NCBI GenBank assembly: GCA_964415895.1
Contig: CAYQCC010000003.1
Coordinates: forward strand, 3,053-67,052
Source: an uncultured Candidatus Saccharibacteria bacterium
GTDB lineage: Bacteria > Patescibacteriota > Minisyncoccia > Phycocordibacterales > UBA1006
Length of the DNA stretch: 64,000 nucleotides
Reading direction: 5' to 3'
The notes beneath the pieces were generated by a model. That model saw only the letters and a program-made list of their open reading frames with translations, had not been told where the DNA came from and searched no databases. Of this stretch, positions 152 through 31,182 are shown piece by piece. Numbering within the stretch: the stretch's first letter is position 1; the number at the start of each line of letters is the position of its first letter. Both the position numbers and the translations under genes were made by a program.

Positions 152-236
152 GGAGGCGTGGATGAGTGGTTTAAATCAACAGTCTTGAAAACTGTCGACT
201 CGAAAGGGTCCGTGAGTTCGAATCTCACCGCCTCCG
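152..236 (+). tRNA. tRNA-Ser (anticodon TGA), class II with long variable arm
   Basis: Acceptor GGAGGCG/CGCCTCC; anticodon stem ACAGT/ACTGT with loop CTTGAAA (U33, anticodon UGA); long variable arm CGACTCGAAAGGGTCCG; T-arm GTGAG-TTCGAAT-CTCAC; discriminator G. Confidence 0.85.
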
Positions 237-1919
237 CATAGTGATACAAAACTCTTCGTTTTGATGATTTAACCCTTCGTATGTAAGGGTTTTTTCATTG
301 CCGAACCCCTCAAAATTGCTCTGTATCATTTTTATCCCAGAAAAGAATACTTCTATTGATTTTTTACTGTAAAATATGAGTTTTTCTTCATCCCATACTA
401 TGTTCGAACCCAGTGCAGTTAACACTCTTCTTTTTGCTTCATACGAACCGTTTTCAATTGTGTTTATTACTGATGATGCAACATCTGTTATTTCATCTAG
501 TTTTTTTACCCATTCAGTATTTACTGGCTTTGAATTATAAATATCGGAGTATTCAATATCTATCTCTGCCAAGAAATCATCTCGTTCTTCTTTTGTAAGT
601 GAGCCTTCAATAAATAATCTTGTGGCTCGTTTCTTTTTATCATCATACTGCTGTTTTCTTTTTTCAATATCTTCAATTTTTCGTAGACCATCTTTTACTT
701 CCTGTTCAGCTATTTCGTGAATATATTTCTTACCCCAATCAATGAAAGGGCTTGGAGTAGAGAGGTTGTCTTTTGCGTACTGAATAAATTCAGTATTTAC
801 TCTCTCTTCAGTCACAGAATGATATTCAAGTTTTTTCTTTTTCTTTCGGTTATCAAAATAATACTGTTGTATAAAATACTTAGGGTTTTCGAGTGTTGAA
901 ATTCGTTTGTTACATTTTGGACAGTGAGTTTTATCTCTATACGCAAATTTATGTTTGCAGTCGCACCATAGTTGTACTTTGATGTCCTGAGAAAGAGTGT
1001 ATCCTAGTGACGAATTAATAAAACCTGTATAGGTCATTTCGTGTTTTTGGTTTTTAGGCTTGTTTCTACCACCCAATATCTGCTCAATCTTGTTAAAATT
1101 GGTTTCGGTAATCATTCTTGGTAGGTTACTATCGAGCGTATGTCTCTCACCTTGAACATAAAAGAAACCTGCGATAACTGGATTATGGAGAAGTTTTCCA
1201 ATATATTCTCGAGTGACAAAATTTCCTCCTAAATTTTTATGTTTCGCTGTTGTAAGTTTTAATTCTTCAACGGCGTATTTATGAATTTTTGTAATGGAAT
1301 ATCTCCCTGAAAGAAATTCCTCTAAAAGTTTTTGGACTTTCCAAAAACGTTCATCATCCACATACCACCAACGTGTTCCTTTTTCTCCCTGTTTTGAATT
1401 TAGGTAACCAATAGTTGCAAGTCCTGAAGGTAGCCCCATTGTACGAGCCTTGTCTCGCTGTCCTCGTTTTACATCTCTACTGAGTGCTAGGGAATACTCT
1501 TTTGATGCACCAAATTTCTGTGCTATGACTGATACGTCGGAACTGTCATCCCAGACTTCAATGTTGTCATCACAAACAGTAATAATCATCAACTTGCCTT
1601 CACTCAAAAGGTCAATGAGAATACCTCCTTCGGTCATATTGCGAGCGATACGGTTCAAGTGCCACGCTAAAATACAGTTTATTTTTCCTGAAAAAATATC
1701 ACTCAACATTTGAGTAAACAGTGGTCGCTTGTGTGCATTTTTTGCAGAGCGAGCTTCTTGGTATTTTGATATTGCTGGAGTGAGAGTTTTATGTTTCTCT
1801 CTCACTTTGTTTATTGCGTCTTCTTGTCCCTCAAGTGATAGTACCTGTCTCTCTCCGTCTCGAGAAGATTTTCTCAAGTATTCAGCAATCTTTAAGTTTT
1901 TATTTTCTAGTTTTTCCAT
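225..1919 (-). CDS. Large serine recombinase (resolvase/integrase family, serine catalytic N-domain plus C-terminal recombinase/zinc-ribbon domain)
   Basis: N-terminal 'AEYLRKSSRDGERQVLSLEGQ' catalytic-serine motif; C-terminal Cys cluster 'CDCKHK...HCPKCNK'; 564 aa; stop lies ~12 nt inside the 3' end of tRNA-Ser. Confidence 0.8.
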   Translation of the reverse strand: MEKLENKNLKIAEYLRKSSRDGERQVLSLEGQEDAINKVREKHKTLTPAISKYQEARSAKNAHKRPLFTQMLSDIFSGKINCILAWHLNRIARNMTEGGILIDLLSEGKLMIITVCDDNIEVWDDSSDVSVIAQKFGASKEYSLALSRDVKRGQRDKARTMGLPSGLATIGYLNSKQGEKGTRWWYVDDERFWKVQKLLEEFLSGRYSITKIHKYAVEELKLTTAKHKNLGGNFVTREYIGKLLHNPVIAGFFYVQGERHTLDSNLPRMITETNFNKIEQILGGRNKPKNQKHEMTYTGFINSSLGYTLSQDIKVQLWCDCKHKFAYRDKTHCPKCNKRISTLENPKYFIQQYYFDNRKKKKKLEYHSVTEERVNTEFIQYAKDNLSTPSPFIDWGKKYIHEIAEQEVKDGLRKIEDIEKRKQQYDDKKKRATRLFIEGSLTKEERDDFLAEIDIEYSDIYNSKPVNTEWVKKLDEITDVASSVINTIENGSYEAKRRVLTALGSNIVWDEEKLIFYSKKSIEVFFSGIKMIQSNFEGFGNEKTLTYEGLNHQNEEFCITMRRR

Positions 1920-2459
1920 ATAAATTAAACAAAAATGAGGTAACGACTTGGTTTCTTTTAGTTGCTACACCAGAGAAAAAGTCATTACCTCGTTTTTATT
2001 TACAAAAACATTTTTTAATAAGTCTCAAATACGATGTTCTTGTAATTCTCTGATGTAGCACTGCTAATATAGCATTTTTCTTTATCCTTTCCAAAGGGAG
2101 GCTAAAAGCCTGTGTTTACCAGTCTTTTTACCCAACTACTCGATGATTATTTTCGTTCTCATCTGATAACGTAGAAACAATAGTTTCCCTATTCAACATC
2201 ACTGTAACCGTGACGTCACTCTTGCCCCTGTCGGTAGCTTAGCGTCGGGTAGGATTATCATTTTACGCTGTTCCTATTTACCCCGCTTTGTTCTTTATCC
2301 CCACCAACTAGGGTTCCTGCCCTAGCCATCAGCTATAAAGTCTTCACATTTAACGGCATCCAAGGGGTGGCTGTGAAGTTCGCCTACCATTTCCCCTCAG
2401 CAAATCGAGCTAATACTAGCTCTGAAATAAACACACTATGTTCATTTCAGAACAAACAT

Positions 2460-2623
2460 TTAAGCTTCTAAAACACGAATTTTTAAGTCTTCTACCATAG
2501 GAACAATAATTGAAAGTCCAATTTCATTTATCTCCTCATCTGTTAATGCTCCATCAAAGTCCTCACCGAAAGTTTTTCGGAGAGCAATTCGTAAATCTTC
2601 AATTGCTTTCTTTGATAAATGCA
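2460..2623 (-). CDS. Small hypothetical protein (54 aa; MHLSKKAIEDLRIALRKTFGEDFDGALTDEEINEIGLSIIVPMVEDLKIRVLEA)
   Basis: Hand-translated uninterrupted frame below the ORF-track cutoff; protein-like composition; no recognisable family. Confidence 0.3.
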
Positions 2624-2706
2624 TAAATAAAAACACAACGTAGTGTTGTGCTTTTATAGTAAACCCATATCGTTATTGTTTATTAAACTAAATCTGGGAC
2701 CCACAT

Positions 2707-3477
2707 TTAGTATTTTTTATCAATTTCTTTTTTTATTTTAACAATATGCTGTTTATCAATATGGATTTTATGTTTTCCTAATTCTTTGGATATTTCAACA
2801 AGTGTTTTTCCTTGAGATTTTGAAATAACTTCTTTAATTTTTGAGGTTTTTGGATTATTTTTTACCTTTTTATTCTTATATAAATTTGTCGTTATGTGTT
2901 GTCTCAAAAGTGGCTTTATGTCACTTTCAAAGTGTTTATCGATAAAGTTAATTAAGTCATTTTTGGTTATTTCTGGGTGTAATAAAATACCAACTGGCTT
3001 TTCGTTAAATAGGTCCTTAGGTGTTCCTATACTTTCTTCAAACCATTCAAAATCAACCACTTCCTGTAATCCATACCTATTGTAAAATTCTGTAATCTTC
3101 TCGCTCCAATCAAAAGATATCTGATTAAAAAATAGGTAGTAAGCAACGATACTTGGTGTAAAAATTGTTATAGGTTCAATGTGTCCTTTGAGTATATTTT
3201 CTTGTATCTCTTGTCTTATTTTTTGTGCTAAGTTGTTGTTTGTTTTCTTATCTTTAGTAAGCAGTTGAGTGGGAAGAAAAAGAAGGTGTTCTTCTTCGGA
3301 CAGGATAATATATTCATCTTCAGTTATTTCAAAACCATCTTCGGGGATATGGTATTTCTGTCTCATTTCCATAATTTTGTTCACAAAAAATGGTGAGTAC
3401 ATAAAATCCTCTAGTACTTTCAAAACTTTTTTAGTTGTTTGAGGGAGCTCCTTTTTCTTTGGTGTAGCATTTTTCAT
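2707..3477 (-). CDS. Hypothetical protein, 256 aa (island cargo; C-terminal basic/HTH-like segment)
   Basis: Long ORF with coding-like composition; no motif recognised. Confidence 0.5.
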   Translation of the reverse strand: MKNATPKKKELPQTTKKVLKVLEDFMYSPFFVNKIMEMRQKYHIPEDGFEITEDEYIILSEEEHLLFLPTQLLTKDKKTNNNLAQKIRQEIQENILKGHIEPITIFTPSIVAYYLFFNQISFDWSEKITEFYNRYGLQEVVDFEWFEESIGTPKDLFNEKPVGILLHPEITKNDLINFIDKHFESDIKPLLRQHITTNLYKNKKVKNNPKTSKIKEVISKSQGKTLVEISKELGKHKIHIDKQHIVKIKKEIDKKY

Positions 3478-3720
3478 ACCCCTATAATAGCATTTTTGTC
3501 TTTATTTTTGAAGAAAATTATGATACATTTATATTGCTCAACAAACAAATTTAGTGCATTTCCTGCGAAGGCAGTTTTTGTCGTTGCTCGTCCACGGTAT
3601 TGGCATTCCAATATGAGGAAGATGAGCAATGGCAGAAATGCTTTGTTTGTTGAGCACCTCATTAATTGGGGTGCCAATACTTTGTATTAAGAAGACAAGG
3701 TTTGCACCCATTGCAACCTT

Positions 3721-4368
3721 ATGAAATATATTTATATATTCTTAATCGCAGTATTGGCAAATCTCACTTTTCAAACAAACGCCTTTGCGTATGATTACTA
3801 TTCCGACAACGGAATGAACTACAGCGATGAACAGTTCAAAAGAGATATGAAATCATATATTGATGAACAAATGACCAGACAAGAAAATCAAGAATTACTA
3901 GACCGTATTCGCTCGAAAGGCAATGGTCACACTGATACCGATATTCAGATACTTCAAGAAAAGTTTAACCAACAACAAAAAGACAATCAGATGACATTAG
4001 ACCAAATGAAGCAGATGGTTGATAGTGTAAATGCAGATACGGCTAAATTACTACAAGAAAAAGAAACGTATCAAAATACTCGCACTTTTTGTTTATCATT
4101 AGCAGAAAAATATGCTGTATCTGGAGCTACGAGTGACCTTGTGACAAATTGTAGAAAATACAATGTTGAAATACCGCTAGAGAAAAAAGTTACGACCGTT
4201 GCAGGAAAAGAAAGTGTAAAAGAGGAACCAAGAGAACAAACACTTGATGAAATTCTTGCCAGTCCAAGTAGTTCAACAACGCCTATAGCTCAAGAGGTGT
4301 CACAAAAGCAATCATTCTTTAAGCGTGCAGTTTCTCATATTAAGGGCTGGTTTTCTTGGTTACGTTAA
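3721..4368 (+). CDS. Secreted coiled-coil protein (signal peptide MKYIYIFLIAVLANLTFQTNAFA)
   Basis: N-terminal hydrophobic signal with AFA cleavage-like site; Q/E/K-rich body. Confidence 0.55.
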   Translation: MKYIYIFLIAVLANLTFQTNAFAYDYYSDNGMNYSDEQFKRDMKSYIDEQMTRQENQELLDRIRSKGNGHTDTDIQILQEKFNQQQKDNQMTLDQMKQMVDSVNADTAKLLQEKETYQNTRTFCLSLAEKYAVSGATSDLVTNCRKYNVEIPLEKKVTTVAGKESVKEEPREQTLDEILASPSSSTTPIAQEVSQKQSFFKRAVSHIKGWFSWLR

Positions 4369-4573
4369 GCTACTTTCTGCTCAGTGACCGAATACGATAT
4401 TTGCCCGAATTTGATGGTGTTTTGTTAAAATAAGTAATTGGTACATTTTAAGATGAAAAACCTTATGAAGAGGCAAATAAGTGGCTTCTAGGTGGGTATC
4501 ATATTATAGGCTTACTGTCTAAAACTTATTATACCTGTCTTGGTTAATCTTCCTTATTTTTTTGTACGCATCC

Positions 4574-4597
4574 TGTCTAATCCTGTGGAGTTTTTGG
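4574..4597. repeat. Left boundary repeat 'tgtctaatcctgtggagtttttgg' (related to 12501..12524). Further 'GTCTAATCTT' copies at 4666..4678 and 4699..4710, and a tandem 'CCCTTGGGTT' x3 at 4632..4667
   Basis: Direct sequence comparison: 13-mer gtctaatcttacg identical at 4666..4678 and 12502..12514; flanking ggagtttttg shared. Confidence 0.6.
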
Positions 4598-4740
4598 TAC
4601 TATATTTATATTATCTATTCTTATCTCTTCTACCCTTGGGTTCCCCTTGGATTTCCCTTGGGTCTAGTATCTCTGGTCTAATCTTACGCAAAGTATCTGT
4701 ATTTTCAGGTCTAATCTTGCATAGATTTTATATAGACTTT

Positions 4741-6018
4741 CTAGTCTAAGACTGTTTTAAGAGTTTCTACTACCTGTAAATTTTCTCTTAGTGCCTTCTT
4801 TACTTCAGCCTCTAATACGTCTTTCCCTTTGTGGATAACCTTATTTCTAACATCTTTATACGAAGAACACCAGTTAGTCCACAACGACTGGTTTTTATTT
4901 TCTAAGGTAAATCCAGTAACTTCTCTTAAAACTTCTTTTAATCTTGTTTTTGTTTTCCAGTTATCGTCTTTAGATATAAAATCTATAGCCTCTTGCTCAG
5001 TTAAACCTTTATTCTTTTGCAGTTTATCAACAAGAAAGTTTTCAATAAAAATCTCAAGACCTTGATAGGATTGAACAACTGCTAATGCGTAGTTTTTATG
5101 ATTAAAGGAGTTTTCAGCATCCAGCAAAAGTAAGTTATACAGGTCTGGCTTTTGACCCTCTTCAAGCATTTTTTCTATTGCCTCAATTTCAACTTTTGAG
5201 CGATTTATAGTTGCCGTTTCTACATTCATTGGAAGAAGATATAAGCCTTGATTTAGTTCAGTGAAATAAATCATATTTATACTTAGCGTACCCAATCTTG
5301 TTATGTATTCTTGCTTAGTGGTAAATCGATAACTATCAATAAGTTTATTTACCGCATCAAGGGCTTTTTCATTGACCGTGTCTATAACTTTTTCTGATAG
5401 CTCTTTATTCTCGAGGTCTTCTTTTTTGACTTCTAAGTTGAACTGAATATATAAGCGAGTAAATCTGAAAATACCGTTTGTGTCCTTAATTTTTTGAAGG
5501 TTGATGCCTGTGTAATTTTGTTCCCAGCCATCACTAGGGTCAATTGGCATTTTAGGAGTAAGGAATTCACTGTCTTTTAAGTATGTAATTCTATCATCTG
5601 CGTAGAAATCAACTTCATCGGACGGTTTTCCGTCTGAAATAGCTTTTTTTGTCCAAATCTTTTGAGGTGTTAAAAGAGCAGCATCATCAGGGGTGTGTAA
5701 TAAGACTTCAAGGTCATAATTGTTTGGTATATGTAGACAGTAAGGTAGATGAGCTTCAACAAATACATTTCCGTAATCGAAATCTTTCATTGCATTTCTG
5801 CCATTAAAACTAAAAAAAGATTGTGCTACAAAAATACCACTTCCTCCTGTTGGGGATGTTTTTGTGATTTCAGTAAGCAATACAGATTTTGCATCATCTT
5901 CATTTAATTGTTTAAAGCTTTCATCTAATAAAGCATTAAAATTAATGAACTCGCCAGTTAAGCCTGATTTTGCTTGCATATTAATATGGACCACTTTTCG
6001 TTTGTATGGGTCTGACAT
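4741..6018 (-). CDS. Hypothetical 425-aa protein with C-terminal Rx4H (HEPN-like) motif 'VRNKVIHKG'; candidate abortive-infection/defence protein divergent from hsdM
   Basis: ORF track; R-x4-H motif ~40 aa from the C-terminus; position directly upstream of a Type I R-M operon. Confidence 0.45.
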   Translation of the reverse strand: MSDPYKRKVVHINMQAKSGLTGEFINFNALLDESFKQLNEDDAKSVLLTEITKTSPTGGSGIFVAQSFFSFNGRNAMKDFDYGNVFVEAHLPYCLHIPNNYDLEVLLHTPDDAALLTPQKIWTKKAISDGKPSDEVDFYADDRITYLKDSEFLTPKMPIDPSDGWEQNYTGINLQKIKDTNGIFRFTRLYIQFNLEVKKEDLENKELSEKVIDTVNEKALDAVNKLIDSYRFTTKQEYITRLGTLSINMIYFTELNQGLYLLPMNVETATINRSKVEIEAIEKMLEEGQKPDLYNLLLLDAENSFNHKNYALAVVQSYQGLEIFIENFLVDKLQKNKGLTEQEAIDFISKDDNWKTKTRLKEVLREVTGFTLENKNQSLWTNWCSSYKDVRNKVIHKGKDVLEAEVKKALRENLQVVETLKTVLD

Positions 6019-6136
6019 AATTCATTCATTATATCATTTTTAGGCTAATTTGTAGTGCTATGCAAAATTATTTAGCAAGCTATAAAACCATTATTTTCTA
6101 GTAAAATGATGGTTTTTATGGTAAAATAATACTATT

Positions 6137-7594
6137 ATGTTCGAACAAACTTTTAAAAATATCGATGATATTTTACATAAAGATGCAGGCTGTGGAAGTG
6201 AGCTTGATTATGTAGAGCAAACCTCTTGGGTGTTGTTTTTGAAGTATCTTGATGATTTAGAAGAGGACCGAAAAACCGCATCAGAACTTGATGGAAAAAA
6301 GTATCTTCCTCTCATTAAACCTGAATACAAGTGGAGTGTTTGGGCAACACCAAAACGTAGCGACGGCAAGGTGGACCATAACGCAATGACAGGCGATGAT
6401 TTGTTGGATTTTGTAAACGTTAAACTCTTCCCTTATCTTAAGGGATTTAAAAAATCTGCTGAAAATGCTGATACCTTGGAATATAAAATCGGAGAAATCT
6501 TTAGTGAAATCAAAAACAGAATACAATCAGGATATAATCTACGTGAAGTAATCAATCTGATTGATACGCTACGTTTTCGTTCTGATAGCGAAAAGCACGA
6601 GATGAGCCACCTCTATGAGGCTAAAATTCAAAATATGGGTAACGCAGGGCGTAATGGTGGTGAATACTATACACCTCGTCCACTCATTACTACTATCGTG
6701 CGTGTTGTTGGTCCAAAAATTGGTGACAAGATTTATGACGGAGCAGTAGGAAGTGCAGGCTTTTTGTGTGAAGCATTTGAGTATCTAAAAAATAGCAAAA
6801 GCCTGACTACAAAAGATACCGAGATTTTACAAAAGCAAACATTCTATGGGAAAGAGAAAAAGTCTCTCGCATATATCATTGGTATTATGAATATGATTTT
6901 GCACGGTATTGAAGCGCCAAACATTATCCATACCAATACACTTGCAGAAAATCTTGCAGATATTCAAGAAAAGGACCGTTACGATGTGGTTCTTGCAAAC
7001 CCTCCTTTTGGTGGAAAAGAACGCGCAGAGGTCCAACAAAACTTTCCCATAAAAACAAGCGAGACAGCATCGCTTTTCTTGCAACATTTTATCAAGATTT
7101 TACGTGCTGGTGGACGTGCGGGTATTGTCATTAAAAATACATTTCTTAGTAACACTGACAATGCCAGCATTGCGCTTCGTAAGCAACTCCTCGAAAACTG
7201 TAACCTTCACACGGTACTTGATTTGCCAGGTGGGACCTTTACGGGTGCTGGTGTTAAAACAGTTGTGTTATTTTTCCAAAAAGGAACCCCTACACGCAAG
7301 GTGTGGTTTTATCAATTAAATCTCGACCGTAATTTAGGAAAAACTAATCCATTAAGTGAAAAGGATTTGGCTGAATTTGTAACACTACAAAAAACCTTTG
7401 CTGACAGTGATAATTCGTGGAATGTTGATGTTTCTACTATCGACCAAAATACTTTTGATTTGAGTGTAAAAAACCCTCATAAAAAGGAAGAGAAAGGATT
7501 TCGTGAACCAAAAGAGATTTTGAAAGAAATTGAAATACTTGATAAGCAAAGTAAAGATATAGTCGGGGGTATTCTGAAGTTAATCAATCCTTAA
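6137..7594 (+). CDS. hsdM: Type I restriction-modification system, DNA methyltransferase subunit M (N6-adenine)
   Basis: NPPF(G) motif IV 'VLANPPFGG'; SAM-binding 'DGAVGSAGFL'; N-terminal HsdM_N-like region; 485 aa. Confidence 0.9.
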   Translation: MFEQTFKNIDDILHKDAGCGSELDYVEQTSWVLFLKYLDDLEEDRKTASELDGKKYLPLIKPEYKWSVWATPKRSDGKVDHNAMTGDDLLDFVNVKLFPYLKGFKKSAENADTLEYKIGEIFSEIKNRIQSGYNLREVINLIDTLRFRSDSEKHEMSHLYEAKIQNMGNAGRNGGEYYTPRPLITTIVRVVGPKIGDKIYDGAVGSAGFLCEAFEYLKNSKSLTTKDTEILQKQTFYGKEKKSLAYIIGIMNMILHGIEAPNIIHTNTLAENLADIQEKDRYDVVLANPPFGGKERAEVQQNFPIKTSETASLFLQHFIKILRAGGRAGIVIKNTFLSNTDNASIALRKQLLENCNLHTVLDLPGGTFTGAGVKTVVLFFQKGTPTRKVWFYQLNLDRNLGKTNPLSEKDLAEFVTLQKTFADSDNSWNVDVSTIDQNTFDLSVKNPHKKEEKGFREPKEILKEIEILDKQSKDIVGGILKLINP

Positions 7595-7599
7595 GATAT

Positions 7600-8832
7600 A
7601 TGCTTACAAATACCACAACAAATACATTTAACTTATCGCAAGATAACATTGAAGATATTGCAATTAATACTTCAAATGACGGAGAAACCTGCTATATTTC
7701 GAGAGCAGACAACAGAACCATATTTTATGGTGATTTTATTATTTACGATGGACCAAAAGTAAAAAAGTGTTGTAGTGTTACCTTTCAAAAAAGTAGCAAG
7801 ACGACAAAGTTTATACCTAGATTGGTTTTTTATAAAATCAACCAAGAAGGTAATATCGTAGACACGAATAGTCAGAAAGTAAACATTGAATTTAATCAAT
7901 CAGAAACAGGGCTATTTGAGTTTTGGAAGCTAATCTCATTCCTTAAGGGGTATAAAGACTTGATTGATGTCGGTGACTTTGATGAAAAGTATAAAGTTAT
8001 TGATAATTCTTTGTACATTGCAGAATTTAAAAATAAACAAGAATTTGATAAGGTACAAGAATTAAAAAAGCTAGATATTGATGAGGATACTCTTAAATCA
8101 TATTTAGCAGATAAACGAAAAGATGATTTAGTTTTATTTGCACAACTTTTAGCCGATAATAAGGCTAGAGAAGATTATCGAACTCAATACAATGTTACAA
8201 AGCAAGGAGATGAGGCAATATGGCATCATTTCTTAAAAAATAGAACTTGGATATTGGGCTTAAATACAGAACTTAAGTTTATTCAGGACTTTGCCGATGA
8301 GGTCCACGTTGGTAATCCTGATACAACAAACAAAGGAAATCCAACCACTGATTTAATGGGTATTTCAGACTATACCACCCTTGTTGAGCTAAAAACCTCT
8401 GAAACTAAGTTCTTTACAGAAACTAAAACATCAAATTCTCGAGCTGGTACTTGGTCTTTTTCCGCAGAGTTTATTGAGGGTATAAGTCAATGCTTATCTC
8501 AAAAAAATAGTTGGGATAAAAATCAGGGTTCTAAGCAATTAGTTGTTGATGGAAGCGTTAAAGACCAAAACGTTTATAGAACTACTGACCCAAACACTGT
8601 ATTTATTATCGGAAACAAAGAAAAAGAATTACCCAAAAACCAAACAACTCCAGATATTCTCGTAAAAAGAGATACACTTGAAAGATTTCGTCGAAATAGT
8701 CGAAATGTTGTTATCATTTCATATGATGAGCTTTACCAAAAGGCTTATTATATAGTTCACCATACAACTGCTCCAGATTTGGTGTACGATAATGAAAAAT
8801 TATCAGAAGACACTAATAGTATCCCATTTTAA
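7600..8832 (+). CDS. Uncharacterised 410-aa protein embedded between hsdM and hsdS; C-terminal PD-(D/E)xK-like motif (D...ELK); candidate R-M-embedded defence nuclease (DUF4263/Shedu-like?)
   Basis: 5-nt and 3-nt gaps to hsdM and hsdS indicate co-transcription; motif 'GISDYTTLVELKTSE'; no M/S/R-subunit motifs. Confidence 0.5.
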   Translation: MLTNTTTNTFNLSQDNIEDIAINTSNDGETCYISRADNRTIFYGDFIIYDGPKVKKCCSVTFQKSSKTTKFIPRLVFYKINQEGNIVDTNSQKVNIEFNQSETGLFEFWKLISFLKGYKDLIDVGDFDEKYKVIDNSLYIAEFKNKQEFDKVQELKKLDIDEDTLKSYLADKRKDDLVLFAQLLADNKAREDYRTQYNVTKQGDEAIWHHFLKNRTWILGLNTELKFIQDFADEVHVGNPDTTNKGNPTTDLMGISDYTTLVELKTSETKFFTETKTSNSRAGTWSFSAEFIEGISQCLSQKNSWDKNQGSKQLVVDGSVKDQNVYRTTDPNTVFIIGNKEKELPKNQTTPDILVKRDTLERFRRNSRNVVIISYDELYQKAYYIVHHTTAPDLVYDNEKLSEDTNSIPF

Positions 8833-8835
8833 TTT

Positions 8836-10047
8836 ATGAAAACTAACTGGGAAATAAAAAAGCTAGATGAATTATACAGGGTTGGCTCGAGTAAACGAGT
8901 GCTAAAGTCTCAATGGAAAACCAAAGGGGTGCCTTTTTATAGAGGTAGAGAGATAACACGTCTTTCCAATGATGGTTTTGTTGAAAATGAGTTGTATATT
9001 TCTGAAGAGCACTATACTGAACTTTTAGAAAAAACAGGTGTTCCAGTTGCTGGGGATATTGTTATTACTGCAATTGGGACAATCGGAAATACGTATATAG
9101 TTCGTGATACAGATAAGTTTTATTTTAAAGATGCGAGCGTTTTGTGGCTTAAAAAAATCTCCGATGTAAGTAGTGAGTTTTTGAGATATTTTTTGAAATC
9201 ATCATTATTTTTCAATCAATTAAGCAAAGGAAATGGTGCAACCGTTGACACCCTAACAATAGAAAAGTTGCAAGGAATTAAACTACCCTTGCCCTCTTTA
9301 ATTGAACAAAAACGCATTGTTTCCATTCTAGATAAAGCTTTTAGTGAAATTGAAAAAGCAAAAACAAATGCTGAGCAAAACCTCAAAAATGCGAAAGAGC
9401 TTTTTGAAAGTTATTTACAAGGGGTGTTTGAGAATAAAGGTGAAGATTGGGAAGAGAAAACATTAGGAGAGGTTTTAGTAAAAACAGAAACTGTTGACCC
9501 AACCAAAAAACCAAATAAAGAGTTTATTTATCTTGATGTTTCAAGTGTAAATAAGGAAACCAAAGAAATTGAAAATGCTACCGTTTTGCTTGGCAAAGAT
9601 GCACCAAGCCGAGCTAGAAAGTTGGTTAGAACTAACGATGTTATTTTTGCTACTGTTAGACCAACTCATAGTAGAGTTGCTCTAATTACTGATGAGTATG
9701 ATGAACAAGTTTGTAGCACAGGTTATTTTGTTTTAAGAGCAAAGGATTTTCTTAATAATAATTTTGTGTTCTATTTTCTTCTTACATACGGTTTCAATAA
9801 ACAGATGGAAAAACTTCAAAAAGGAGCAAGTTATCCTGCTGTAACTGATGCAGAAGTCAAAAGCATTGTAATACCTTTTCCAAAATCAAAAGAAGAACAA
9901 CAAGCAACCATTCAAAAATTAGATACCCTGCGAGCCGAAACCAAAAAACTTGAAGAAATATACAGAAATAAAATTACAGACTGCGAAGAACTCAAAAAGT
10001 CGATTTTACACAAAGCCTTTACTGGCGAATTATCAACCCCTAACTAA
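8836..10047 (+). CDS. hsdS: Type I restriction-modification system, specificity subunit S (two target-recognition domains)
   Basis: 403 aa; duplicated TRD architecture with conserved central and C-terminal coiled-coil spacers (LPLPSL...QKRIVSILD...; LDTLRAET). Confidence 0.8.
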   Translation: MKTNWEIKKLDELYRVGSSKRVLKSQWKTKGVPFYRGREITRLSNDGFVENELYISEEHYTELLEKTGVPVAGDIVITAIGTIGNTYIVRDTDKFYFKDASVLWLKKISDVSSEFLRYFLKSSLFFNQLSKGNGATVDTLTIEKLQGIKLPLPSLIEQKRIVSILDKAFSEIEKAKTNAEQNLKNAKELFESYLQGVFENKGEDWEEKTLGEVLVKTETVDPTKKPNKEFIYLDVSSVNKETKEIENATVLLGKDAPSRARKLVRTNDVIFATVRPTHSRVALITDEYDEQVCSTGYFVLRAKDFLNNNFVFYFLLTYGFNKQMEKLQKGASYPAVTDAEVKSIVIPFPKSKEEQQATIQKLDTLRAETKKLEEIYRNKITDCEELKKSILHKAFTGELSTPN

Positions 10048-10056
10048 TCAATTCAT

Positions 10057-12414
10057 ATGAACGAAGCAGAAACAAGAGCAGAAATGATTGACCCAAAACT
10101 AACTGCCCTCGGCTGGGGTGTTGTTGATGGTTCAAAGGTACTCCGTGAATACAACATTACCGCAGGAAAAATAAAGGTTGGAGAAAAGAGGGGTAAGCCA
10201 ATGATTGCTGACTATGTATTGGTCTACAAGGGCGTAAAATTGGCTGTTATTGAGGCAAAATCAGTAAAATTAGATGTGAGTGAAGGTGTGGCACAAGCAA
10301 AGCAATATGCGCTCAAACTAGGTATTCGTACTACCTATGCAACTAATGGTAAAGAAATCTACGCAATTGATACGATGACAGCTGATGAGGGTTCTGTGGA
10401 TACTTTTCTGTCACCAGACGAGCTATGGAATAAAACATTCGAGGTACAAAATGAATGGCGAGAAAAGTTCGCATCGGTCCCATTCGAGGATAAAAGTGGT
10501 TCGTGGTCTCCACGATATTATCAAGAGCTAGCTGTTAAAAACACCCTCGAAGCAGTTGCGAATGGTAAAAACAGAATACTCCTCACACTGGCAACAGGTA
10601 CAGGTAAAACTGCTATTTCATTTCAAATTGCGTGGAAACTATTCCAAACTCGCTGGAATTTGTCAGATAGTGGTACTCGTCGTCCGCGTATTCTATTCCT
10701 TGCGGATAGAAACATATTAGCGGACCAAGCTTTTAATGCCTTCTCTGCATTTCCTGAAGACGCACTGGTACGCATTAATCCCAAGGAAATACGCAAAGGA
10801 GGTAAAGTTCCCACAAATGGAAGTATTTTCTTTACCATATTCCAAACGTTTATGAGTGGAACAGATAGTGAAGGAAACCCTGCTCCGTATTTTGGAGAAT
10901 ATCCGCCAGATTATTTTGATTTTATTATTATCGATGAGTGTCACCGCGGAGGTGCAAATGATGAGAGTAATTGGCGAGGTATTTTAGAGTACTTTTCACC
11001 AGCGGTACAGCTCGGTCTGACAGCTACACCAAAACGAAAAGATAACGTTGATACCTATAAGTACTTTGGTGAACCAGTATACATCTACTCACTCAAAGAA
11101 GGTATTGATGACGGATTTTTGACACCGTTTAAAGTGAAGCGTATCAAAACAACACTTGATGATTATATCTATACGAGCGATGACCAAATCGTTGAGGGTG
11201 AGATTGAGGCAGGAAAACTATATCAGGAAAAAGACTTTAACCGAACCATTGAAATACGTGAACGTGAAGCAAAACGTGTAAAAATCTTTTTAGATGATGC
11301 AAATCAAAACGAAAAAGCAATCATTTTCTGTGCTAATCAAACCCACGCCGCAGTGGTCCGTGATTTAGTAAATCAATACAGTGAAAGTAAGGACCCACAC
11401 TATTGTGTACGCGTAACTGCCAATGATGGCGAAATTGGCGAGCAATTCTTGCGAGAATTCCAAGATAACGAGAAGTTTATACCAACTATTCTAACTACCT
11501 CTCAAAAGCTCTCAACGGGTGTAGATGCTCGTAATATACGAAATGTAGTATTGATGCGCCCTGTGAACTCTATGATTGAATTCAAGCAGATTGTTGGTCG
11601 TGGTACTCGTTTATTTGATGGAAAGGAATTCTTTACTATCTATGACTTTGTTGATGCGTACCATCACTTTGCAGACCCAGAGTGGGACGGTGAACCTGTT
11701 TCAGATGAAGGTGATGTACTTGATGAAAATACTGGTGAAAAGATTAAGAAAGAAAAAGAGCAAGTCGAACGTGAGCCAAAAGTTGATGAAGAAAATACCG
11801 CTCCTAAAAAAGTAAAAGTGAAGCTTCGAAATGGTAAAGAAATGGAAATACAGCATATGGTTGCAACATCGTTTTGGGGAGCAGATGGTAAGCCTGTTTC
11901 TGCTGAAGAGTTCCTCCAAAACCTTTTTGGGGCACTACCACAATTCTTTACCTCTGAAGATGAATTGCGTGACCTATGGGGTAATCCAGTAACGCGTGCT
12001 ACATTACTTGAGAAACTTGAAGAAGCTGGTTATGGAAAAGAAGAACTTGCTTCACTGCAAAAACTTATTGATGCCGAAAAGAGTGATATTTTTGATGTAT
12101 TGGAATATGTTTTTAATAGTGATATCAAGCCTATAACAAGAGAAAATCGTGTCCAGTCTGCACATAATGACATTATGGGGGCCTTGTCAGAGAAACAACA
12201 AGAGTTTATCGATTTCGTACTCCAGAAATATATCGAGACAGGAGTTGAAGAATTAAGTGAAGAAAAACTATCATTGCTCCTTGTGAACAAATACCAGTCA
12301 CTCACAGATGCACAAAGTGCTCTAGGAGATACGACATCTATTCGCTCACTTTTCTTTAATTTCCAAAAGTATTTGTATCGTAAACCGAAACAAGAAACAT
12401 ACACAAAGGTTTAA
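10057..12414 (+). CDS. hsdR: Type I restriction enzyme R subunit (N-terminal PD-(D/E)xK nuclease plus SF2 helicase)
   Basis: Motif I 'LATGTGKT', motif II 'DECHRG', N-terminal 'VIEAKS' nuclease core; 785 aa; follows hsdS by 9 nt. Confidence 0.85.
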   Translation: MNEAETRAEMIDPKLTALGWGVVDGSKVLREYNITAGKIKVGEKRGKPMIADYVLVYKGVKLAVIEAKSVKLDVSEGVAQAKQYALKLGIRTTYATNGKEIYAIDTMTADEGSVDTFLSPDELWNKTFEVQNEWREKFASVPFEDKSGSWSPRYYQELAVKNTLEAVANGKNRILLTLATGTGKTAISFQIAWKLFQTRWNLSDSGTRRPRILFLADRNILADQAFNAFSAFPEDALVRINPKEIRKGGKVPTNGSIFFTIFQTFMSGTDSEGNPAPYFGEYPPDYFDFIIIDECHRGGANDESNWRGILEYFSPAVQLGLTATPKRKDNVDTYKYFGEPVYIYSLKEGIDDGFLTPFKVKRIKTTLDDYIYTSDDQIVEGEIEAGKLYQEKDFNRTIEIREREAKRVKIFLDDANQNEKAIIFCANQTHAAVVRDLVNQYSESKDPHYCVRVTANDGEIGEQFLREFQDNEKFIPTILTTSQKLSTGVDARNIRNVVLMRPVNSMIEFKQIVGRGTRLFDGKEFFTIYDFVDAYHHFADPEWDGEPVSDEGDVLDENTGEKIKKEKEQVEREPKVDEENTAPKKVKVKLRNGKEMEIQHMVATSFWGADGKPVSAEEFLQNLFGALPQFFTSEDELRDLWGNPVTRATLLEKLEEAGYGKEELASLQKLIDAEKSDIFDVLEYVFNSDIKPITRENRVQSAHNDIMGALSEKQQEFIDFVLQKYIETGVEELSEEKLSLLLVNKYQSLTDAQSALGDTTSIRSLFFNFQKYLYRKPKQETYTKV

Positions 12415-12441
12415 GTGGTAGAAATTATATCTCCAAAAGAT

Positions 12442-12468
12442 AACGTCATAACAAGGCGTTATTTTTTG
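12442..12468 (+). terminator. Rho-independent terminator after hsdR (ataacg-N-cgttat + T6)
   Basis: Hairpin plus T-run immediately after hsdR stop. Confidence 0.5.
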
Positions 12469-12500
12469 TAGATTAAGTTTTCTATAAAGTTTACGTGTCT

Positions 12501-12524
12501 TGTCTAATCTTACGGAGTTTTTGT
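12501..12524. repeat. Right boundary repeat 'tgtctaatcttacggagtttttgt' (direct-orientation partner of 4574..4597)
   Basis: See left repeat; same orientation; brackets the 425-aa gene plus hsdM-X-hsdS-hsdR. Confidence 0.6.
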
Positions 12525-12637
12525 TTAATTATCTTGATTATTTCGGGTGCTTGGTTGCTCATTCATTCATTTTCTTTGGTTATTATTTTTAGAACATCTT
12601 TACAAGTTTTGGAGTAAGAATTTTTTATATAGTCTAT

Positions 12638-12788
12638 GATAGGCTATCGATAGTCTATCGTTTACTATCTTTAGATATATTGCTTATGCTTACGCTTCTT
12701 TCAATATTGCTTTCCGAACATCATCCCACGTTCGGAGTAGGGATATTTGTTTTTGTTATAGTCTAAGATAGTCTATAGATAGACTATC
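12638..12788. promoter_or_regulatory. Cluster of palindromic operator-like boxes GATAG(G/T)CTATC. Two abutting copies at 12638..12659 and an inverted pair 'gatagtctat-ag-atagactatc' at 12767..12788
   Basis: Exact palindromes read in sequence; located in a 730-bp intergenic region between hsdR and the HNH gene. Confidence 0.45.
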
Positions 12789-12832
12789 TTGTTTATATTT
12801 TACGCTTCTTCTAATATTGCTTGCCGAACATC
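12690..12832. repeat. Two 33-bp direct repeats 'ttacgcttctt(t/c)(c/t)aatattgctt(t/g)ccgaacatc' (12690..12722 and 12800..12832), 110 bp apart, flanking the palindromic boxes
   Basis: 30/33 identity by eye alignment. Confidence 0.6.
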
Positions 12833-12912
12833 GTATACCCACTTCCGCCAAGAGAATAAAGTATCGGAGCTGACTCACTTGCCTCAAATGAGTGATAATG
12901 CCCTGACCAGTA

Positions 12913-12936
12913 AAAAGCACGGTTTCGTGCTTTTTA
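12913..12936. terminator. Rho-independent terminator hairpin aaaagcacg-gttt-cgtgctttt
   Basis: Perfect 9-bp stem, 4-nt loop, T-run; explains away listed ORF 12789..12971. Confidence 0.6.
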
Positions 12937-12951
12937 CTTTAAAATTGATAT

Positions 12952-13113
12952 ATGGAAACAAAAGAAAATGAAAAAACTGAGGAAGAGATTATTATCGACA
13001 ACGAATTGGACTATCTTGCGGAAGTTCTAGTAGAAGCATTCTTAGAAGAGAAAGGGTATGAGTCAATTGATTGGTTGTATCAAAAGAAGATTTGGCAAAA
13101 AAGAAAGAAATAG
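12952..13113 (+). CDS. Small acidic ORF (53 aa; METKENEKTEEEIIIDNELDYLAEVLVEAFLEEKGYESIDWLYQKKIWQKRKK) immediately upstream of the HNH gene
   Basis: Hand translation; ends 33 nt before the 13147 start; below ORF-track cutoff. Confidence 0.3.
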   Translation: METKENEKTEEEIIIDNELDYLAEVLVEAFLEEKGYESIDWLYQKKIWQKRKK

Positions 13114-13146
13114 ATTTTTTAGGTCAATTCATGGTAGGCTAAAAAT

Positions 13147-14241
13147 ATGCCTAGATGTATTTATTGTTTGAAAACAAGTCCAGAAGTTACTTTCGACACA
13201 ACGGAACATGTAATCCCTCAGTCTTTTGGTACTTACGAACCATTAACTCCTACTCTCGAGGAGCTAGTTTGTGATTCGTGCAATTCATTGTTTTCAAAAC
13301 TTGAAACCAAATTAAGAGAAGATACCTTTGAGGGTGTTTTTGGGCAAAGACTTAACTTTCAAAATAAAAACAGTATCACCATAAGAAATAAAAATTTCAA
13401 GATTACTTCTTTAAGTGAATTTAAAGATCCAATGTTTACTAGAACATTTTTTCTTTTTAAAATTGAAGATGAAAAGATTGTGCCTGATATCAAACCTCAC
13501 ATAACTATTAAAATGAAAAATGGCGGGTATAGAGTATTTCTTATAGAAGCACTGAAAAGAATAGAGAAAGATACCAGCAGGTTCAATAAGCTTAAAAAAG
13601 ATATATCAAAACTGAGCAAAGAAGACATTTGGATTTTTGTCCCTAGAGATGATGCTTCTTTGAAAGAAGCGGAGTCGATATTAAAAGATTACGGTATTGA
13701 ATATACAGAAAAGAGTAGAGGTATAGCTGGAGAAGAAACTCCGGAAGCAGTCGAAGTCATAGAGGATTACCAAGGTGTTGTAGATAAAGAAATTTGCAGG
13801 GTTTTAGCAAAAATAGTTTTTAACTATTTTACGTATTGTGCTAAAGAACAAGGAATGGCTGATTTGGTCTTCAGTCCAAATTTTGATCCTATTCGAAACT
13901 TTATTTTAAATGGCGCTGGATATAGTGATACTTTTGTACATATGCCCGAGAGGCGAATTCTAGGGCAAGAGGTTGGAACTAATAGGTATGTCTTTGGTCA
14001 TACGGTATGTTTCGGAGAAGATGAGGCAGGGAAAGTTTATTGTCACTTAGTTCTTTTCAGTTTTCGGCCTTACACAATATCTCTGGGAATTCTTCCGCAA
14101 GAAATAAAAAATCAATTATTTGGCTGCGGGCATGTTTTTGATCCTGTAACAAAACGAATTGAAAATATTGCTCAAAATACACAACCCCGCATGCCTGATG
14201 CTCTCGATCTGTCTTTTGGACTATATAAAAGATTTAGATAG
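13147..14241 (+). CDS. HNH (His-Me finger) nuclease-domain protein with ~300-aa uncharacterised C-terminal extension; candidate defence protein
   Basis: N-terminal 'CIYC...EHVIPQSFG...CDSCNS' matches the CxxC...[DE]H...P...CxxCN HNH signature; 364 aa. Confidence 0.55.
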   Translation: MPRCIYCLKTSPEVTFDTTEHVIPQSFGTYEPLTPTLEELVCDSCNSLFSKLETKLREDTFEGVFGQRLNFQNKNSITIRNKNFKITSLSEFKDPMFTRTFFLFKIEDEKIVPDIKPHITIKMKNGGYRVFLIEALKRIEKDTSRFNKLKKDISKLSKEDIWIFVPRDDASLKEAESILKDYGIEYTEKSRGIAGEETPEAVEVIEDYQGVVDKEICRVLAKIVFNYFTYCAKEQGMADLVFSPNFDPIRNFILNGAGYSDTFVHMPERRILGQEVGTNRYVFGHTVCFGEDEAGKVYCHLVLFSFRPYTISLGILPQEIKNQLFGCGHVFDPVTKRIENIAQNTQPRMPDALDLSFGLYKRFR

Positions 14242-14439
14242 CCTCTTCAGTTAAAAGAGTAAGTTCTTTATCCATATAAACAATCCTAGCTCTCAGATTC
14301 GCCAGCAGTTCTCGCTTCTCAATCACCGTGCCTTCTTTTAGAATATACTTCGCATAGTTCCGTATATCGGTATCTTTTCTGTTCTCAACCTTGTCCGTGC
14401 TTCCAAGCACGGATCTTTGGAATATGTTAAAATACCCCT

Positions 14440-14850
14440 ATGAACTCAATTGCCCATATAGAAGTTAATGTTACAGATCTACAAACCTCAACAAAATTAT
14501 GGAATCTATTTATTTCTCATCTTGGATGGGAGCAATTCGATGTCGATGACCCTTTGGTAACTGGATTCAAAGGTTTGGATAAAACACACATATTTCTTGT
14601 TCAGACAGACCAAGAGTTTATAGGCAACGGATATCATCGTAAAAACATTGGATTAAATCACTTTGCTTTTAGAACAGATTCATTAGAAAAAGTAGATTTG
14701 TTCGCATCTTTTCTTAAAGAAAATGATATTCCTACTCTATATGGTGAAGGTCCAAAAGATTATTCTTTAGAGTATGGGCAAGAAAAGTATTATGCAGTTT
14801 TCTTTGAGGATCCTGACCGAATAAAAATTGAAGTAGTTTTTTGCAAGTAG
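14440..14850 (+). CDS. VOC/glyoxalase-bleomycin resistance family protein
   Basis: 136 aa; glyoxalase-like beta-alpha-beta-beta-beta composition 'HIEVNVTDL...HFAFRTDS'. Confidence 0.5.
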   Translation: MNSIAHIEVNVTDLQTSTKLWNLFISHLGWEQFDVDDPLVTGFKGLDKTHIFLVQTDQEFIGNGYHRKNIGLNHFAFRTDSLEKVDLFASFLKENDIPTLYGEGPKDYSLEYGQEKYYAVFFEDPDRIKIEVVFCK

Positions 14851-14892
14851 ACTATAATATAAAAACACACGATCGCTCGTGTATTTTTATTC

Positions 14893-15360
14893 TTATTTCT
14901 CCAAATCCTTGATAACAATCTTTCTCATCGTCATCATCTGCTGCATAGCATAACTTGCAACTTCTTTGTCGGCGCTTGTGTTTAACTCAAGCAATCTTTT
15001 GGGAGTTACTTGCCACGACAGTCCATACTTATCTTTACACCAACCGCAAGCACTTTCTGCGCCGTCTTTTGTAAAAGCGTCCCAGTAGTAATCTGTTTCT
15101 TCTTGATCTTCTGTCGTAATCATTAATGAAATAGAATCATTGAAATCAACATATCGTTTTGCACCCATAAAATGATATGTATTTCCAAAGAGTTTTACTG
15201 TGGCCATTTCAACTTTCTGCTCTGGCGTGTCTAACATGACATTGTGCATGACTTCTTCAAAATATACCTTTCCATCTCTGTTAAAGATGCCTTGATAATA
15301 ATTGATTACCTCTTTCAAACTCTGATCAAACCAGAAAAACGATGTAAGTTTGTTTTCCAT
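14893..15360 (-). CDS. PhnB-like / 3-demethylubiquinone-9 3-methyltransferase-domain (VOC superfamily) protein
   Basis: C-terminal 'CGWCKDKYGLSWQV' signature. Confidence 0.6.
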   Translation of the reverse strand: MENKLTSFFWFDQSLKEVINYYQGIFNRDGKVYFEEVMHNVMLDTPEQKVEMATVKLFGNTYHFMGAKRYVDFNDSISLMITTEDQEETDYYWDAFTKDGAESACGWCKDKYGLSWQVTPKRLLELNTSADKEVASYAMQQMMTMRKIVIKDLEK

Positions 15361-15367
15361 ATAATTA

Positions 15368-15790: not shown

Positions 15791-15919
15791 AATTTTAAAG
15801 GTTATTTGTTAATAGATGTATTTTACCATTTTTTATTATCTTTAGGCAAAATATGTGTATTTTTCTTAGAGCATGCCCTGTGCTATACCACCCTTCTATT
15901 AACCAATAATTATAACTAT

Positions 15920-30209: not shown

Positions 30210-30249
30210 TAAGTGCACCAAAAACCCTTAATCTAACGTATCTATCTAT

Positions 30250-30663: not shown

Positions 30664-30678
30664 TTCTAAAATAATTCT

Positions 30679-31179: not shown

Positions 31180-31182
31180 TAT

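Follow-up and report, generated by a model that had tools for sequence, protein, structure and literature searches.

A candidate integrative island with Type I restriction-modification and Shedu genes at the 3' end of a tRNA-Ser gene, adjoined by a large serine recombinase gene

The DNA analysed here, referred to as the window, is a stretch of 64,000 nt from contig CAYQCC010000003.1. A tRNA-Ser gene, a large serine recombinase (LSR) gene and a set of predicted defence genes lie near its left end, and the segment 238-12848 is very probably an integrative genomic island that was inserted by the LSR at the 3' end of tRNA-Ser(UGA), with the anatomy and defence cargo described below. The tRNA-Ser(tga) gene, the integration target, was predicted by ARAGORN at 152..237 on the plus strand. 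Rfam matched it at 152-236 with 59.4 bits, and no other Rfam match was obtained in a scan of 1-16.5 kb. The LSR gene (225..1919, minus strand) encodes 564 amino acids in the integrated state and overlaps the tRNA 3' end by 13 nt. Its stop codon TGA is the complement of tca at 225-227, within the tRNA 3' end. A preliminary description of this region had reported a 564-aa LSR abutting a tRNA-Ser(TGA), with the recombinase stop inside the tRNA, and ARAGORN, Rfam and the list of open reading frames (ORFs) agree on this arrangement. The further content that it had listed, namely hypothetical proteins, a secreted protein and a Type I restriction-modification (R-M) cassette with two extra candidate effectors, was found at the positions it had given.

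The LSR was identified by Pfam, PHROG and PDB profiles and by its predicted fold. The Pfam Resolvase domain (PF00239) was matched at 1.5e-14 (54.8 bits, cut-off 23.3), and the integrase family PHROG 95 was matched at 7.6e-40 over residues 5-515. PDB profile matches, which include SPbeta SprA and PhiC31, cover the catalytic domains. The NCBIfam models CcrA, CcrB, CcrC and XisF gave weak matches, those to the Ccr models scoring 26.8-38.1 bits against cut-offs of 700-900. The AlphaFold model has a mean pLDDT of 80.8 and long helices at residues 371-503, and its last residues (539-564, about 25) are predicted to be disordered, with pLDDT below 50. Foldseek matched the model over its full length to the SPbeta, PhiC31, Bxb1 and A118 integrases (best E 2.8e-17). 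The alignments to SPbeta, PhiC31 and Bxb1 span about 570-650 columns (mostly 570-585) and that to A118 RD-ZD-CC (4kis) spans 385, with 13-18% sequence identity. In an alignment of 53 homologues, residues R16, K17 and S18 and cysteines C319, C321, C333 and C336 are invariant. A Recombinase match (PF07508) is precomputed for most LSR homologues. The Cys4 motif and the fold match together suggest a zinc ribbon and a coiled coil in the window LSR.

Empty sites were found in two relatives. The AlaX gene of the window (24509-25186) is widespread among bacteria of the candidate phyla radiation (CPR), and syntenic contigs were obtained through its nearest relatives. The first of these, L089 (L-numbers denote fetched loci), shares 91% AlaX identity. 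It matches window positions 241-1 at 95%, with a tRNA that is 100% identical, and window positions 18584-15872 at 85%. Its identity to the window ends after ...CCTCCGCA at window position 238, and homology resumes at 15872. The interval from the tRNA to DinB is 1.9 kb in L089, consisting of an ABC exporter gene and a terminator, compared to 15.6 kb in the window. Relative to L089, the whole of 242-15871 is therefore replaced. In another contig, L092, the right-hand homology is lost at 15877, the same point as in L089. These breakpoints indicate that the block from DinB to AlaX is core in the genus and that the region from the tRNA to 15871 is variable. A metagenome scan with the left-flank pattern returned the L089 organism alone, again.

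The second empty site, L096, was found through an 88% homologue of the window VOC gene and resolves the right boundary. The first 26 nt of this contig are the 3'-terminal part of the same tRNA-Ser, CAAGAGAATAAAGTATCGGAG... comes next, and its positions 22-60 correspond to window 12844-12882 at 95%. After this trailer come a 461-aa Shedu gene, a stretch corresponding to the VOC region (window 14260-14887, 88%) and a PhnB-like gene, PhnB140. As the tRNA in L096 is joined directly to the sequence that starts at window position 12849, the recombinase-bounded element is 238-12848. The 34 positions that follow in the window (12849..12882, plus strand) would be the host trailer of the tRNA, B'. From these alignments the element appears to be 12.6 kb in size, with the core TCCGC at both junctions. 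The preliminary description had extended the island to about 14.3 kb, and the L096 empty site moves this boundary to 12848. It had also proposed a synteny comparison with relatives without the insertion, holding that a gene order conserved as core in all relatives would refute an island; L089 and L096 both lack the insert.

The junction sequences were compared four ways (attL, attR, and attB of L096 and of L089). The search for an att core near the tRNA 3' end, another suggestion of the preliminary description, yielded a 5-nt core. The sequence TCCGC, at 233..237 in attL and 12844-12848 in attR, is all that attL, attR and attB share. It comprises the last three bases of the acceptor stem, the discriminator and the next base. 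To the left of the core, attL reads CACCGCC (tRNA) and attR reads ACCCACT. To the right, attL reads ATAGTG (element), and attR and attB read CAAGAG (host). Since the flanks differ on either side, the crossover must fall within TCCGC, and its exact position in the core would be one of these few bases. The tRNA-Ser is intact at the occupied site and has the same sequence as the copies in L089 and L096. After its discriminator, L096 encodes CCA, the window CAT and L089 CAA. Maturation of this tRNA must therefore rely on CCA addition, and insertion of the element replaces an encoded CCA end where one is present.

Several other candidates for the right boundary were rejected. A long direct repeat of the tRNA 3' end does not occur in the window, the shared core being 5 nt, and a displaced copy of the tRNA 3' end was not found there at up to 3 mismatches in 21 nt. 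The trailer of L089, used as a probe for attR, is not in the window and is unlike the trailer of L096. A search for an inverted repeat of the junction gave nothing significant. Upstream of the tRNA, at 47-93, lies a perfect 22-bp hairpin, which is probably the terminator of the preceding gene. It differs in one arm in L089, and the 145 nt after this hairpin, together with the tRNA, are identical between L089 and the window.

Both ends of the element carry a sequence related to its target. On the left, the P' arm (238..297, plus strand) starts with ATAGTGATACAAAAC, lies inside the C-terminal coding region of the LSR and forms the replacement trailer of the tRNA. A terminator scan found an intrinsic terminator within this arm, consisting of a hairpin at 271-291 and a T-run that extends to 297. 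On the right, attR (12824..12848, plus strand; placed by the L096 alignment) consists of the P arm CCGAACATCGTATACCCACT and the core TCCGC (12844-12848). This P arm resembles a tRNA-Ser 3' end and is identical in 20 of 26 positions to three units in L005.

These features suggest how integration may proceed. The attP site would consist of a tRNA-end mimic (P, with T-loop, T-stem and acceptor), the core, and a mimic of a tRNA trailer and terminator (P'), and both arms would overlap the 3' end of the LSR gene. In the attB site, the core would lie between the tRNA end (B) and the native trailer (B'). The LSR would exchange the look-alike halves at TCCGC, leaving the body of the tRNA untouched and giving it a new terminator from the element. 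The predicted attP junction is ...CCCACTTCCGC|ATAGTGATAC... (longer form ...GCCGAACATCGTATACCCACTTCCGCATAGTGATACAAAAC...), and the predicted attB junction is ...CCGCCTCCGC|CAAGAGAATAAAG... (longer form ...TCTCACCGCCTCCGCCAAGAGAATAAAGTATCGG...). The C-terminal residues of the LSR would change with the integration state, as the reading frame stops in the T-stem of the tRNA in one state and runs into the P arm in the other. In the integrated state, the last three codons and the stop come from the host tRNA, and the tail reads ...CITMRRR before the stop. The computed ORF of the excised form has 576 aa, is read into the P arm and ends in ...CITMRKWVYDVRQAILEEA / RKWVYDVRQAILEEA before the stop. The organism is rare, and exact-protein look-ups returned only a few short Logan contigs. 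Both contigs with the exact LSR protein (L001 and L002) contain the integrated ORF, and L004 holds the VOC region only. Excision and current mobility of the element can be proposed on the basis of this sequence organisation.

A scan of species-representative genomes retrieved 294 relatives of the LSR, and 78 loci were fetched. The relatives are nearly all from Patescibacteria. The window PolA clusters at ≥90% with a protein named Candidatus Paceibacterota, and the host appears to be a Paceibacteria (CPR) bacterium. A convergent tRNA lies at the LSR 3' end in 28 of the 55 loci scanned. These tRNAs are mainly Asn(gtt), and Ser(tga), another Ser and Tyr(gta) also occur. In 22 of the 28 tRNA-adjacent loci the LSR gene reaches exactly 13 nt into the tRNA before it stops, as it does in the window. 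The recurrence of this overlap in homologous loci of other species indicates that the arrangement noted in the preliminary description is not a chance one.

The island-side arm is also conserved in the family, at the DNA level. It reads A..GTAGAAAAAAC, followed by a stem-loop and then GTTTTTTC. The proteins share the C-terminal motif ...EKT-x5-VFSTMLRG before the stop, which is a by-product of these DNA signals. In the tRNA-Asn clade, the P' stem is 96.8% paired and all 7 of its 7 pairs show compensatory changes. None of 500 shuffles reached the observed pairing, and partner columns that were slid out of register were 30-43% paired. This covarying stem in the LSR tail indicates that the element supplies a replacement tRNA terminator from within the integrase coding region.

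The P arm in the family is a 25-nt look-alike of a tRNA 3' end. The Asn type has the pattern [CT]CGAAC-ATC-nTCCCAnGnnnGGAGC and the Ser type has CCGAACATnGTATAnnnnCTTCCGC. A strict P-arm pattern gave 31 matches in 21 of 53 loci, all in the tRNA sense and 4-11 kb away on the cargo side. No match was found in antisense and none in shuffled loci. The matches usually precede an A-rich trailer and a terminator, which would be the displaced host trailer. In L023, the P-arm motif places the far end at 3210. A 13-nt match to the tRNA-Asn end in the same locus (6224-6236) falls within an ORF and was discarded as fortuitous.

Three of the fetched loci show an attP configuration, in which P, core and P' abut the LSR and no tRNA is present. 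These are L020 (6715-6787) and L070 (11641-11710), the latter with the same sequence as L039. The LSR tails in such loci read MLRTWDDVRT... or MLQWLDEVRT..., which corresponds to a translated P arm. These loci are either excised elements or tandem copies. A terminal overlap, which would indicate circularity, was not found in the contigs of L020 and L039. The tRNA beside the LSR in L006 (2655-2750), which was called as Ser, has an unusual anticodon, 'act'; at a distance of 1.9 kb there is a normal tRNA-Ser(gct). This locus has two far-end P-arm units (positions noted in L006 are 2805, 1486 and 11650-11737), and a stretch of 20 nt that is identical to the tRNA 3' end faces an inverted copy at a distance of 57 nt.

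Practically all loci of the family have a small gene immediately upstream of the LSR and in the same orientation, with 55 such ORFs in total. In the window this gene is located at 2460..2636 (minus strand), and it encodes a protein of about 55 aa with the family consensus M.LS.kAi.dLr..L.k.yG.dF...LsdEElNeIGllLL...aEsLK. Among 1.84 billion proteins it is represented by 53 clusters, all of 48-96 aa, and it has no Pfam, PHROG or PDB match. From its linkage to the LSR, this partner is likely a directionality or accessory factor. LSRs with 31-35% identity, accompanied by the partner gene, were also found in Bacteroidota (Dokdonia, Kordia and others, some of them Flavobacteriaceae; L049, L050, L053, L055-L057 and L063), at loci without an adjacent tRNA. 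The module is thus not confined to CPR bacteria.

The cargo of the island begins next to the partner gene with a gene for a hypothetical protein of 256 aa (2707..3477, minus strand). In many loci this slot is occupied by fast-evolving genes of about 200-290 aa. Homologues of the 256-aa protein occur in four other loci (L025, L027, L011 and L051), and the gene was accordingly dismissed as a universal member of the module. The next gene (3721..4368, plus strand) is an orphan and encodes a 215-aa protein that is predicted to be secreted, with an N-terminal hydrophobic signal ending in AFA. It has no family match in Pfam, PADLOC, NCBIfam or PHROG. A divergently transcribed gene (4741..6018, minus strand) encodes a 425-aa protein with a C-terminal HEPN-like domain, which was matched by HEPN_Apea (E 0.0029, 18.5 bits, Pfam cut-off 24.4) and by PADLOC CARF_HEPN (5.6e-4). 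Its motif R391-x4-H396 (R391-NKVI-H396) is conserved in a homologue with 53% identity that belongs to the L030 island cargo. This protein is a candidate RNase effector.

The largest part of the cargo is a block of four genes on the plus strand (6137..12414) with intergenic gaps of 3-9 nt. The first gene, hsdM (6137-7594), was matched by PADLOC MTase_I at 6.4e-161. It is followed by a Shedu sduA gene (DUF4263; 7600-8832; PADLOC SduA 1.7e-54; PF14082 76.9 bits, cut-off 27), by hsdS (8836-10047), which has two Methylase_S stretches, and by hsdR of the EcoAI family (10057-12414; NF046051 818 bits, cut-off 550). From these matches, the operon is predicted to encode a complete EcoAI-family Type I R-M system (type IB) with full-length M, S and R subunits, and the Shedu gene is embedded between hsdM and hsdS. 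The Type I R-M and Shedu genes lie on a segment that is not present in L089 and L096, which qualifies it as a defence island. The stacked defence genes of the preliminary description are therefore recovered as a complete Type I R-M system, a Shedu gene and a HEPN-like protein on a segment that varies among relatives. Judging from these domain assignments, the cargo may have anti-phage activity and could provide a layered defence. Type I R-M would restrict unmethylated DNA, Shedu, co-transcribed in the R-M operon, would act as a second nuclease, and the divergently transcribed HEPN-like protein would act as an RNase-type effector.

The HEPN-like gene and the hsdM-sduA-hsdS-hsdR block are flanked by direct repeats of the GTCTAATC type. 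The left copy lies at 4565..4721 (plus strand) and the right copy at 12492-12541. These repeats are about 50 nt in length with 72% identity and contain four motif copies, and none of the other fetched loci contains them. The segment that they enclose, with the HEPN-like gene and the R-M block, may be a nested cassette. Defence genes also recur in sister islands, where 136 cargo-side ORFs from 26 loci were scanned. They include Type III R-M genes (4 methylases and at least 2 restriction subunits), ResIII (5) and Schlafen/AlbA_2 (3). AAA_15/21, KAP NTPase, Hhe and MkoA genes were also found, along with some host genes past short islands.

The right end of the element (12415..12823, plus strand) is non-coding and contains repeats, ATAGTCTAT palindromes and a vestigial P arm. 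A module of about 110-129 nt is duplicated here, together with a 33-nt repeat (12690-12722 and 12800-12832). Read in the LSR frame, the 33-nt repeats encode ...DVR(K/Q)AIL(K/E)EA before a stop. The vestigial P arm, CCGAACATCATCCCACGTTCGGAGT at 12714-12738, is of the tRNA-Asn type and lies 110 nt inside the working Ser-type arm. Each of the two arms comes after a copy of the 33-nt repeat. This Asn-type arm and the repeat are possibly the trace of a retargeting from tRNA-Asn to tRNA-Ser. At 12621-12790, a module of about 129 nt is present twice in tandem and contains clusters of ATAGTCTAT / ATAGACTAT palindromes. The ATAGTCTAT palindromes resemble iterons or operators.

Several sister islands contain more than one P-arm unit. 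L030 has four (987/2009/3080/3597), L008 has three (1189/2783/3481) and L005 has three (223, 1051 and 3554). Such units, often followed by a terminator, divide the cargo gene blocks in sister islands (2-4 copies), and in L005 the exact P' motif GTGATACAAAAC occurs about 48 nt past two of the units. These loci could have arisen by tandem accretion, or from LSR-less cassettes mobilised in trans. A broader and more speculative reading, which we consider rather improbable at present, is that the LSR family serves throughout the CPR as a dedicated platform for assembling cargo cassettes into arrays at tRNA genes. Each cassette would end with a tRNA-3'-end look-alike and a terminator. The LSR tail would switch with integration, reading ...WxDVR... 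in the excised element and having its stop in the tRNA in the integrated one, and the embedded terminator would gate expression, so that tail and terminator together sense the integration state. Retargeting would proceed by duplicating and editing the P-arm module, of which the Asn-type arm in the window would be a trace. If true, such elements would have a built-in sensor of their integration state.

The sequence to the right of the element differs among relatives. The interval 12883-14259 is a swap slot with conserved flanks on both sides. In the window it holds a 54-aa ORF (12949-13113, plus strand) and a gene for a 364-aa HNH_5 protein identified by Pfam (13147-14241, plus strand), both outside the element, and in L096 it holds the 461-aa stand-alone Shedu gene (61-1548). 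Because the same slot holds Shedu in L096, this suggests that the HNH protein is also a defence gene. The HNH gene of the preliminary description is thus present as described, but it belongs to this neighbouring slot and not to the element. The lineage-variable flank continues from 14260 to 15871 with genes for VOC (14440-14850) and two PhnB-like proteins. PhnB155 (14893-15360) has no match in L096, and PhnB140 (15368-15790) is common to L096. L089 has an ABC exporter in place of this content, and the conserved core starts at 15872. Past 15871, DinB, ABC exporter, DUF1801, SRPBCC and AlaX genes follow, and in the contigs compared the block with DinB, the ABC exporter and AlaX appears to be core. 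VOC/PhnB and ABC exporter genes beyond about 14.3 kb had been announced in the preliminary description, and they are annotated there.

The tetranucleotide composition of 238-12848 correlates with that of the core at r = 0.925, compared to 0.986 +/- 0.004 for core chunks of equal size. The corresponding value for the VOC/PhnB region, 0.889, equals that of core chunks of the same size. These results bear on the question of whether the element could be larger and take in HNH (end at about 14.3 kb) or VOC and PhnB as well (end at 15.87 kb), with the site at 12848 as an internal relic. The complete replacement of 242-15871 relative to L089 would fit such an element, as would the HNH protein, which is plausible as a defence gene. 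Several sister loci contain more than one P-arm copy, which means that an inner one is not necessarily the end. However, L096 joins the intact tRNA directly to window position 12849 onward, and it contains the VOC gene with its upstream spacer (14260-14887, 88%) but has Shedu and not HNH in between. The VOC/PhnB tetranucleotides are core-like, and other Paceibacteria have homologues of VOC in contexts unrelated to this one. We therefore regard a larger element as quite improbable. It is less probable still that the region is a degraded prophage or a phage satellite. Serine integrases are typical of temperate phages and the top PHROG match of the LSR is a phage integrase family, but no capsid, terminase, tail, portal or replication family was detected in the island ORFs; more generally, searches of Pfam, PADLOC, NCBIfam and PHROG with these ORFs found no phage structural, packaging or replication family and no relaxase or type IV secretion family. 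The IMG/VR viral contigs contained generic LSRs with up to 33% identity over extended matches and no family member, and the sister islands, of 4-11 kb, carry defence or accessory genes as well. That the region is ordinary core genome, with an overlap of tRNA and LSR due to annotation coincidence, would agree with its unremarkable GC content, yet this has almost no likelihood given the empty sites in two relatives (L089 and L096), the same overlap geometry in 22 other species and the off-core k-mer signature.

A more serious alternative is that the island was once inserted by the LSR and is now fixed, with an LSR that is inactive or has another role. We consider such a fossil possible but unlikely. 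An excised form was not observed, L001 and L002 both show the integrated ORF, and the right end contains duplicated and vestigial arm copies, all of which would fit a fixed element. Against this, the LSR is full-length, retains all family-invariant residues including the catalytic Ser and the Cys4 motif, and has a confidently predicted fold. Both junctions retain an identical core and arms that follow the family consensus, and the partner gene is intact. Some observations also weigh against the favoured reading of 238-12848 as an LSR-inserted island with defence cargo. A single simple integration does not account for the multiple P-arm copies in sister loci or for the second, vestigial copy in the window. 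The P arm matches the present tRNA-Ser loosely outside the 5-nt core. The placement of attR depends on one 2.3-kb contig from a relative at 88% nucleotide identity (L096), and the trailer after the tRNA in L089 differs from that in L096. No excised circle and no attP or attB junction read from this organism was seen. The Pfam Recombinase (PF07508) and zinc-ribbon (PF13408) families match homologues of the LSR and not the LSR of the window, and the HEPN family matches are below their thresholds. The GC content of the island is 0.351, against about 0.365, and does not discriminate. The composition check suggested in the preliminary description accordingly gave a divided answer, since the tetranucleotides of 238-12848 are off-core and the GC content is unremarkable.

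Compared to known systems, the LSR belongs to the same class as the serine integrases SPbeta SprA, PhiC31, Bxb1 and A118/LI, with a full-length fold match and the same order of domains, from a resolvase catalytic domain through a recombinase domain to a zinc ribbon with a coiled coil. The few bases shared by the junctions are consistent with the 2-bp crossover of these enzymes, and the small separate partner could parallel a directionality factor. The SPbeta protein SprB and the TP901-1 protein Orf7 are likewise small. Unlike phage-type integrases, this LSR targets a tRNA 3' end, shares 13-18% identity with them and has no family member on viral contigs. The target-mimicking attP overlaps its ORF, and its C-terminus depends on the integration state. 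By lifestyle, the closest counterparts would be the staphylococcal cassette chromosome (SCC)/Ccr elements. These are LSR-driven, non-phage and non-conjugative islands at the 3' end of a housekeeping gene, which is preserved, and they carry accessory and defence cargo, often in composite or tandem arrays bounded by att-like repeats (PMC11470126). In contrast to SCC/Ccr elements, the target here is a tRNA gene and not rlmH, a single recombinase with a 55-aa partner takes the place of ccrAB, the host is a CPR bacterium and the LSR scores are below the Ccr cut-offs.

Islands of tyrosine integrases are another counterpart at tRNA genes (tDNA). In those of the Islander/TIGER type, the integrase abuts the tDNA, the tRNA 3' end is restored and the presence of the island varies (PMC4383910). 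The window element likewise has its integrase beside an intact tRNA gene and shows presence and absence with precise empty sites. It differs in its serine enzyme, in sharing 5 nt and not tens, and in having a degenerate look-alike and not an exact displaced fragment. Tycheposons of Prochlorococcus are tRNA-associated cargo elements in streamlined genomes, and 27 of 937 use an LSR (10.1101/2020.12.28.424599). Most tycheposons have tyrosine recombinases and often carry replication modules, whereas no replication gene was detected in this island. The cargo recalls TgvAB of Vibrio VPI-2, a defence gene inside a Type I R-M operon (PMC11411939). As with TgvAB/PrrC, a second nuclease-type gene lies in a Type I R-M operon, and the tight spacing implies co-transcription. 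Unlike TgvAB/PrrC, the embedded gene is Shedu (SduA, DUF4263) and is located between hsdM and hsdS.

In the literature searched, no study of Patescibacteria that deals with serine recombinases or with tRNA islands was found. Large LSR mining studies may list such proteins without this anatomy. The LSR family appears to be previously undescribed. The island resembles known serine-integrase islands, and its new features are the tRNA-mimicking attP in an ORF, the covarying terminator and the universal partner. CPR bacteria (Patescibacteria) have tiny genomes and are mostly uncultured, and gene exchange among them is little known. The window provides a fully delimited CPR vehicle with both junctions and two empty sites, and it reveals several hundred serine integrases that are aimed at tRNA 3' ends. 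Such elements would move defence genes, among them restriction, Shedu and HEPN genes, from one species to another. The encoding of target choice, the re-aiming among Asn, Ser and Tyr tRNAs and the feedback of the integration state on the enzyme are testable. Readable tRNA-based att sites could also have practical use, as tRNA genes are universal and serine integrases are tools for genome engineering.

Other variable segments were observed further to the right. The PhnB-like paralogues at 15368-15790 and 23600-24037 have a common 66-nt stretch with 89% identity, and in L089 nothing that corresponds to the latter lies between the two SRPBCC genes. Small detox-type genes are expanded in this lineage. 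A second, unrelated insertion of 6.7 kb lies at 29547-36243 and is not present in L084, L089 and L093, where DUF433 adjoins HisKA. Its tetranucleotide correlation (r 0.918) is also below that of core chunks. Genes in this segment specify a sigma-70 factor of the ECF type (29568-30209) and the components of a MacAB-like efflux system, namely HlyD (31183-32715), an ABC ATPase (32720-33424) and a MacB/FtsX permease (34110-35330).

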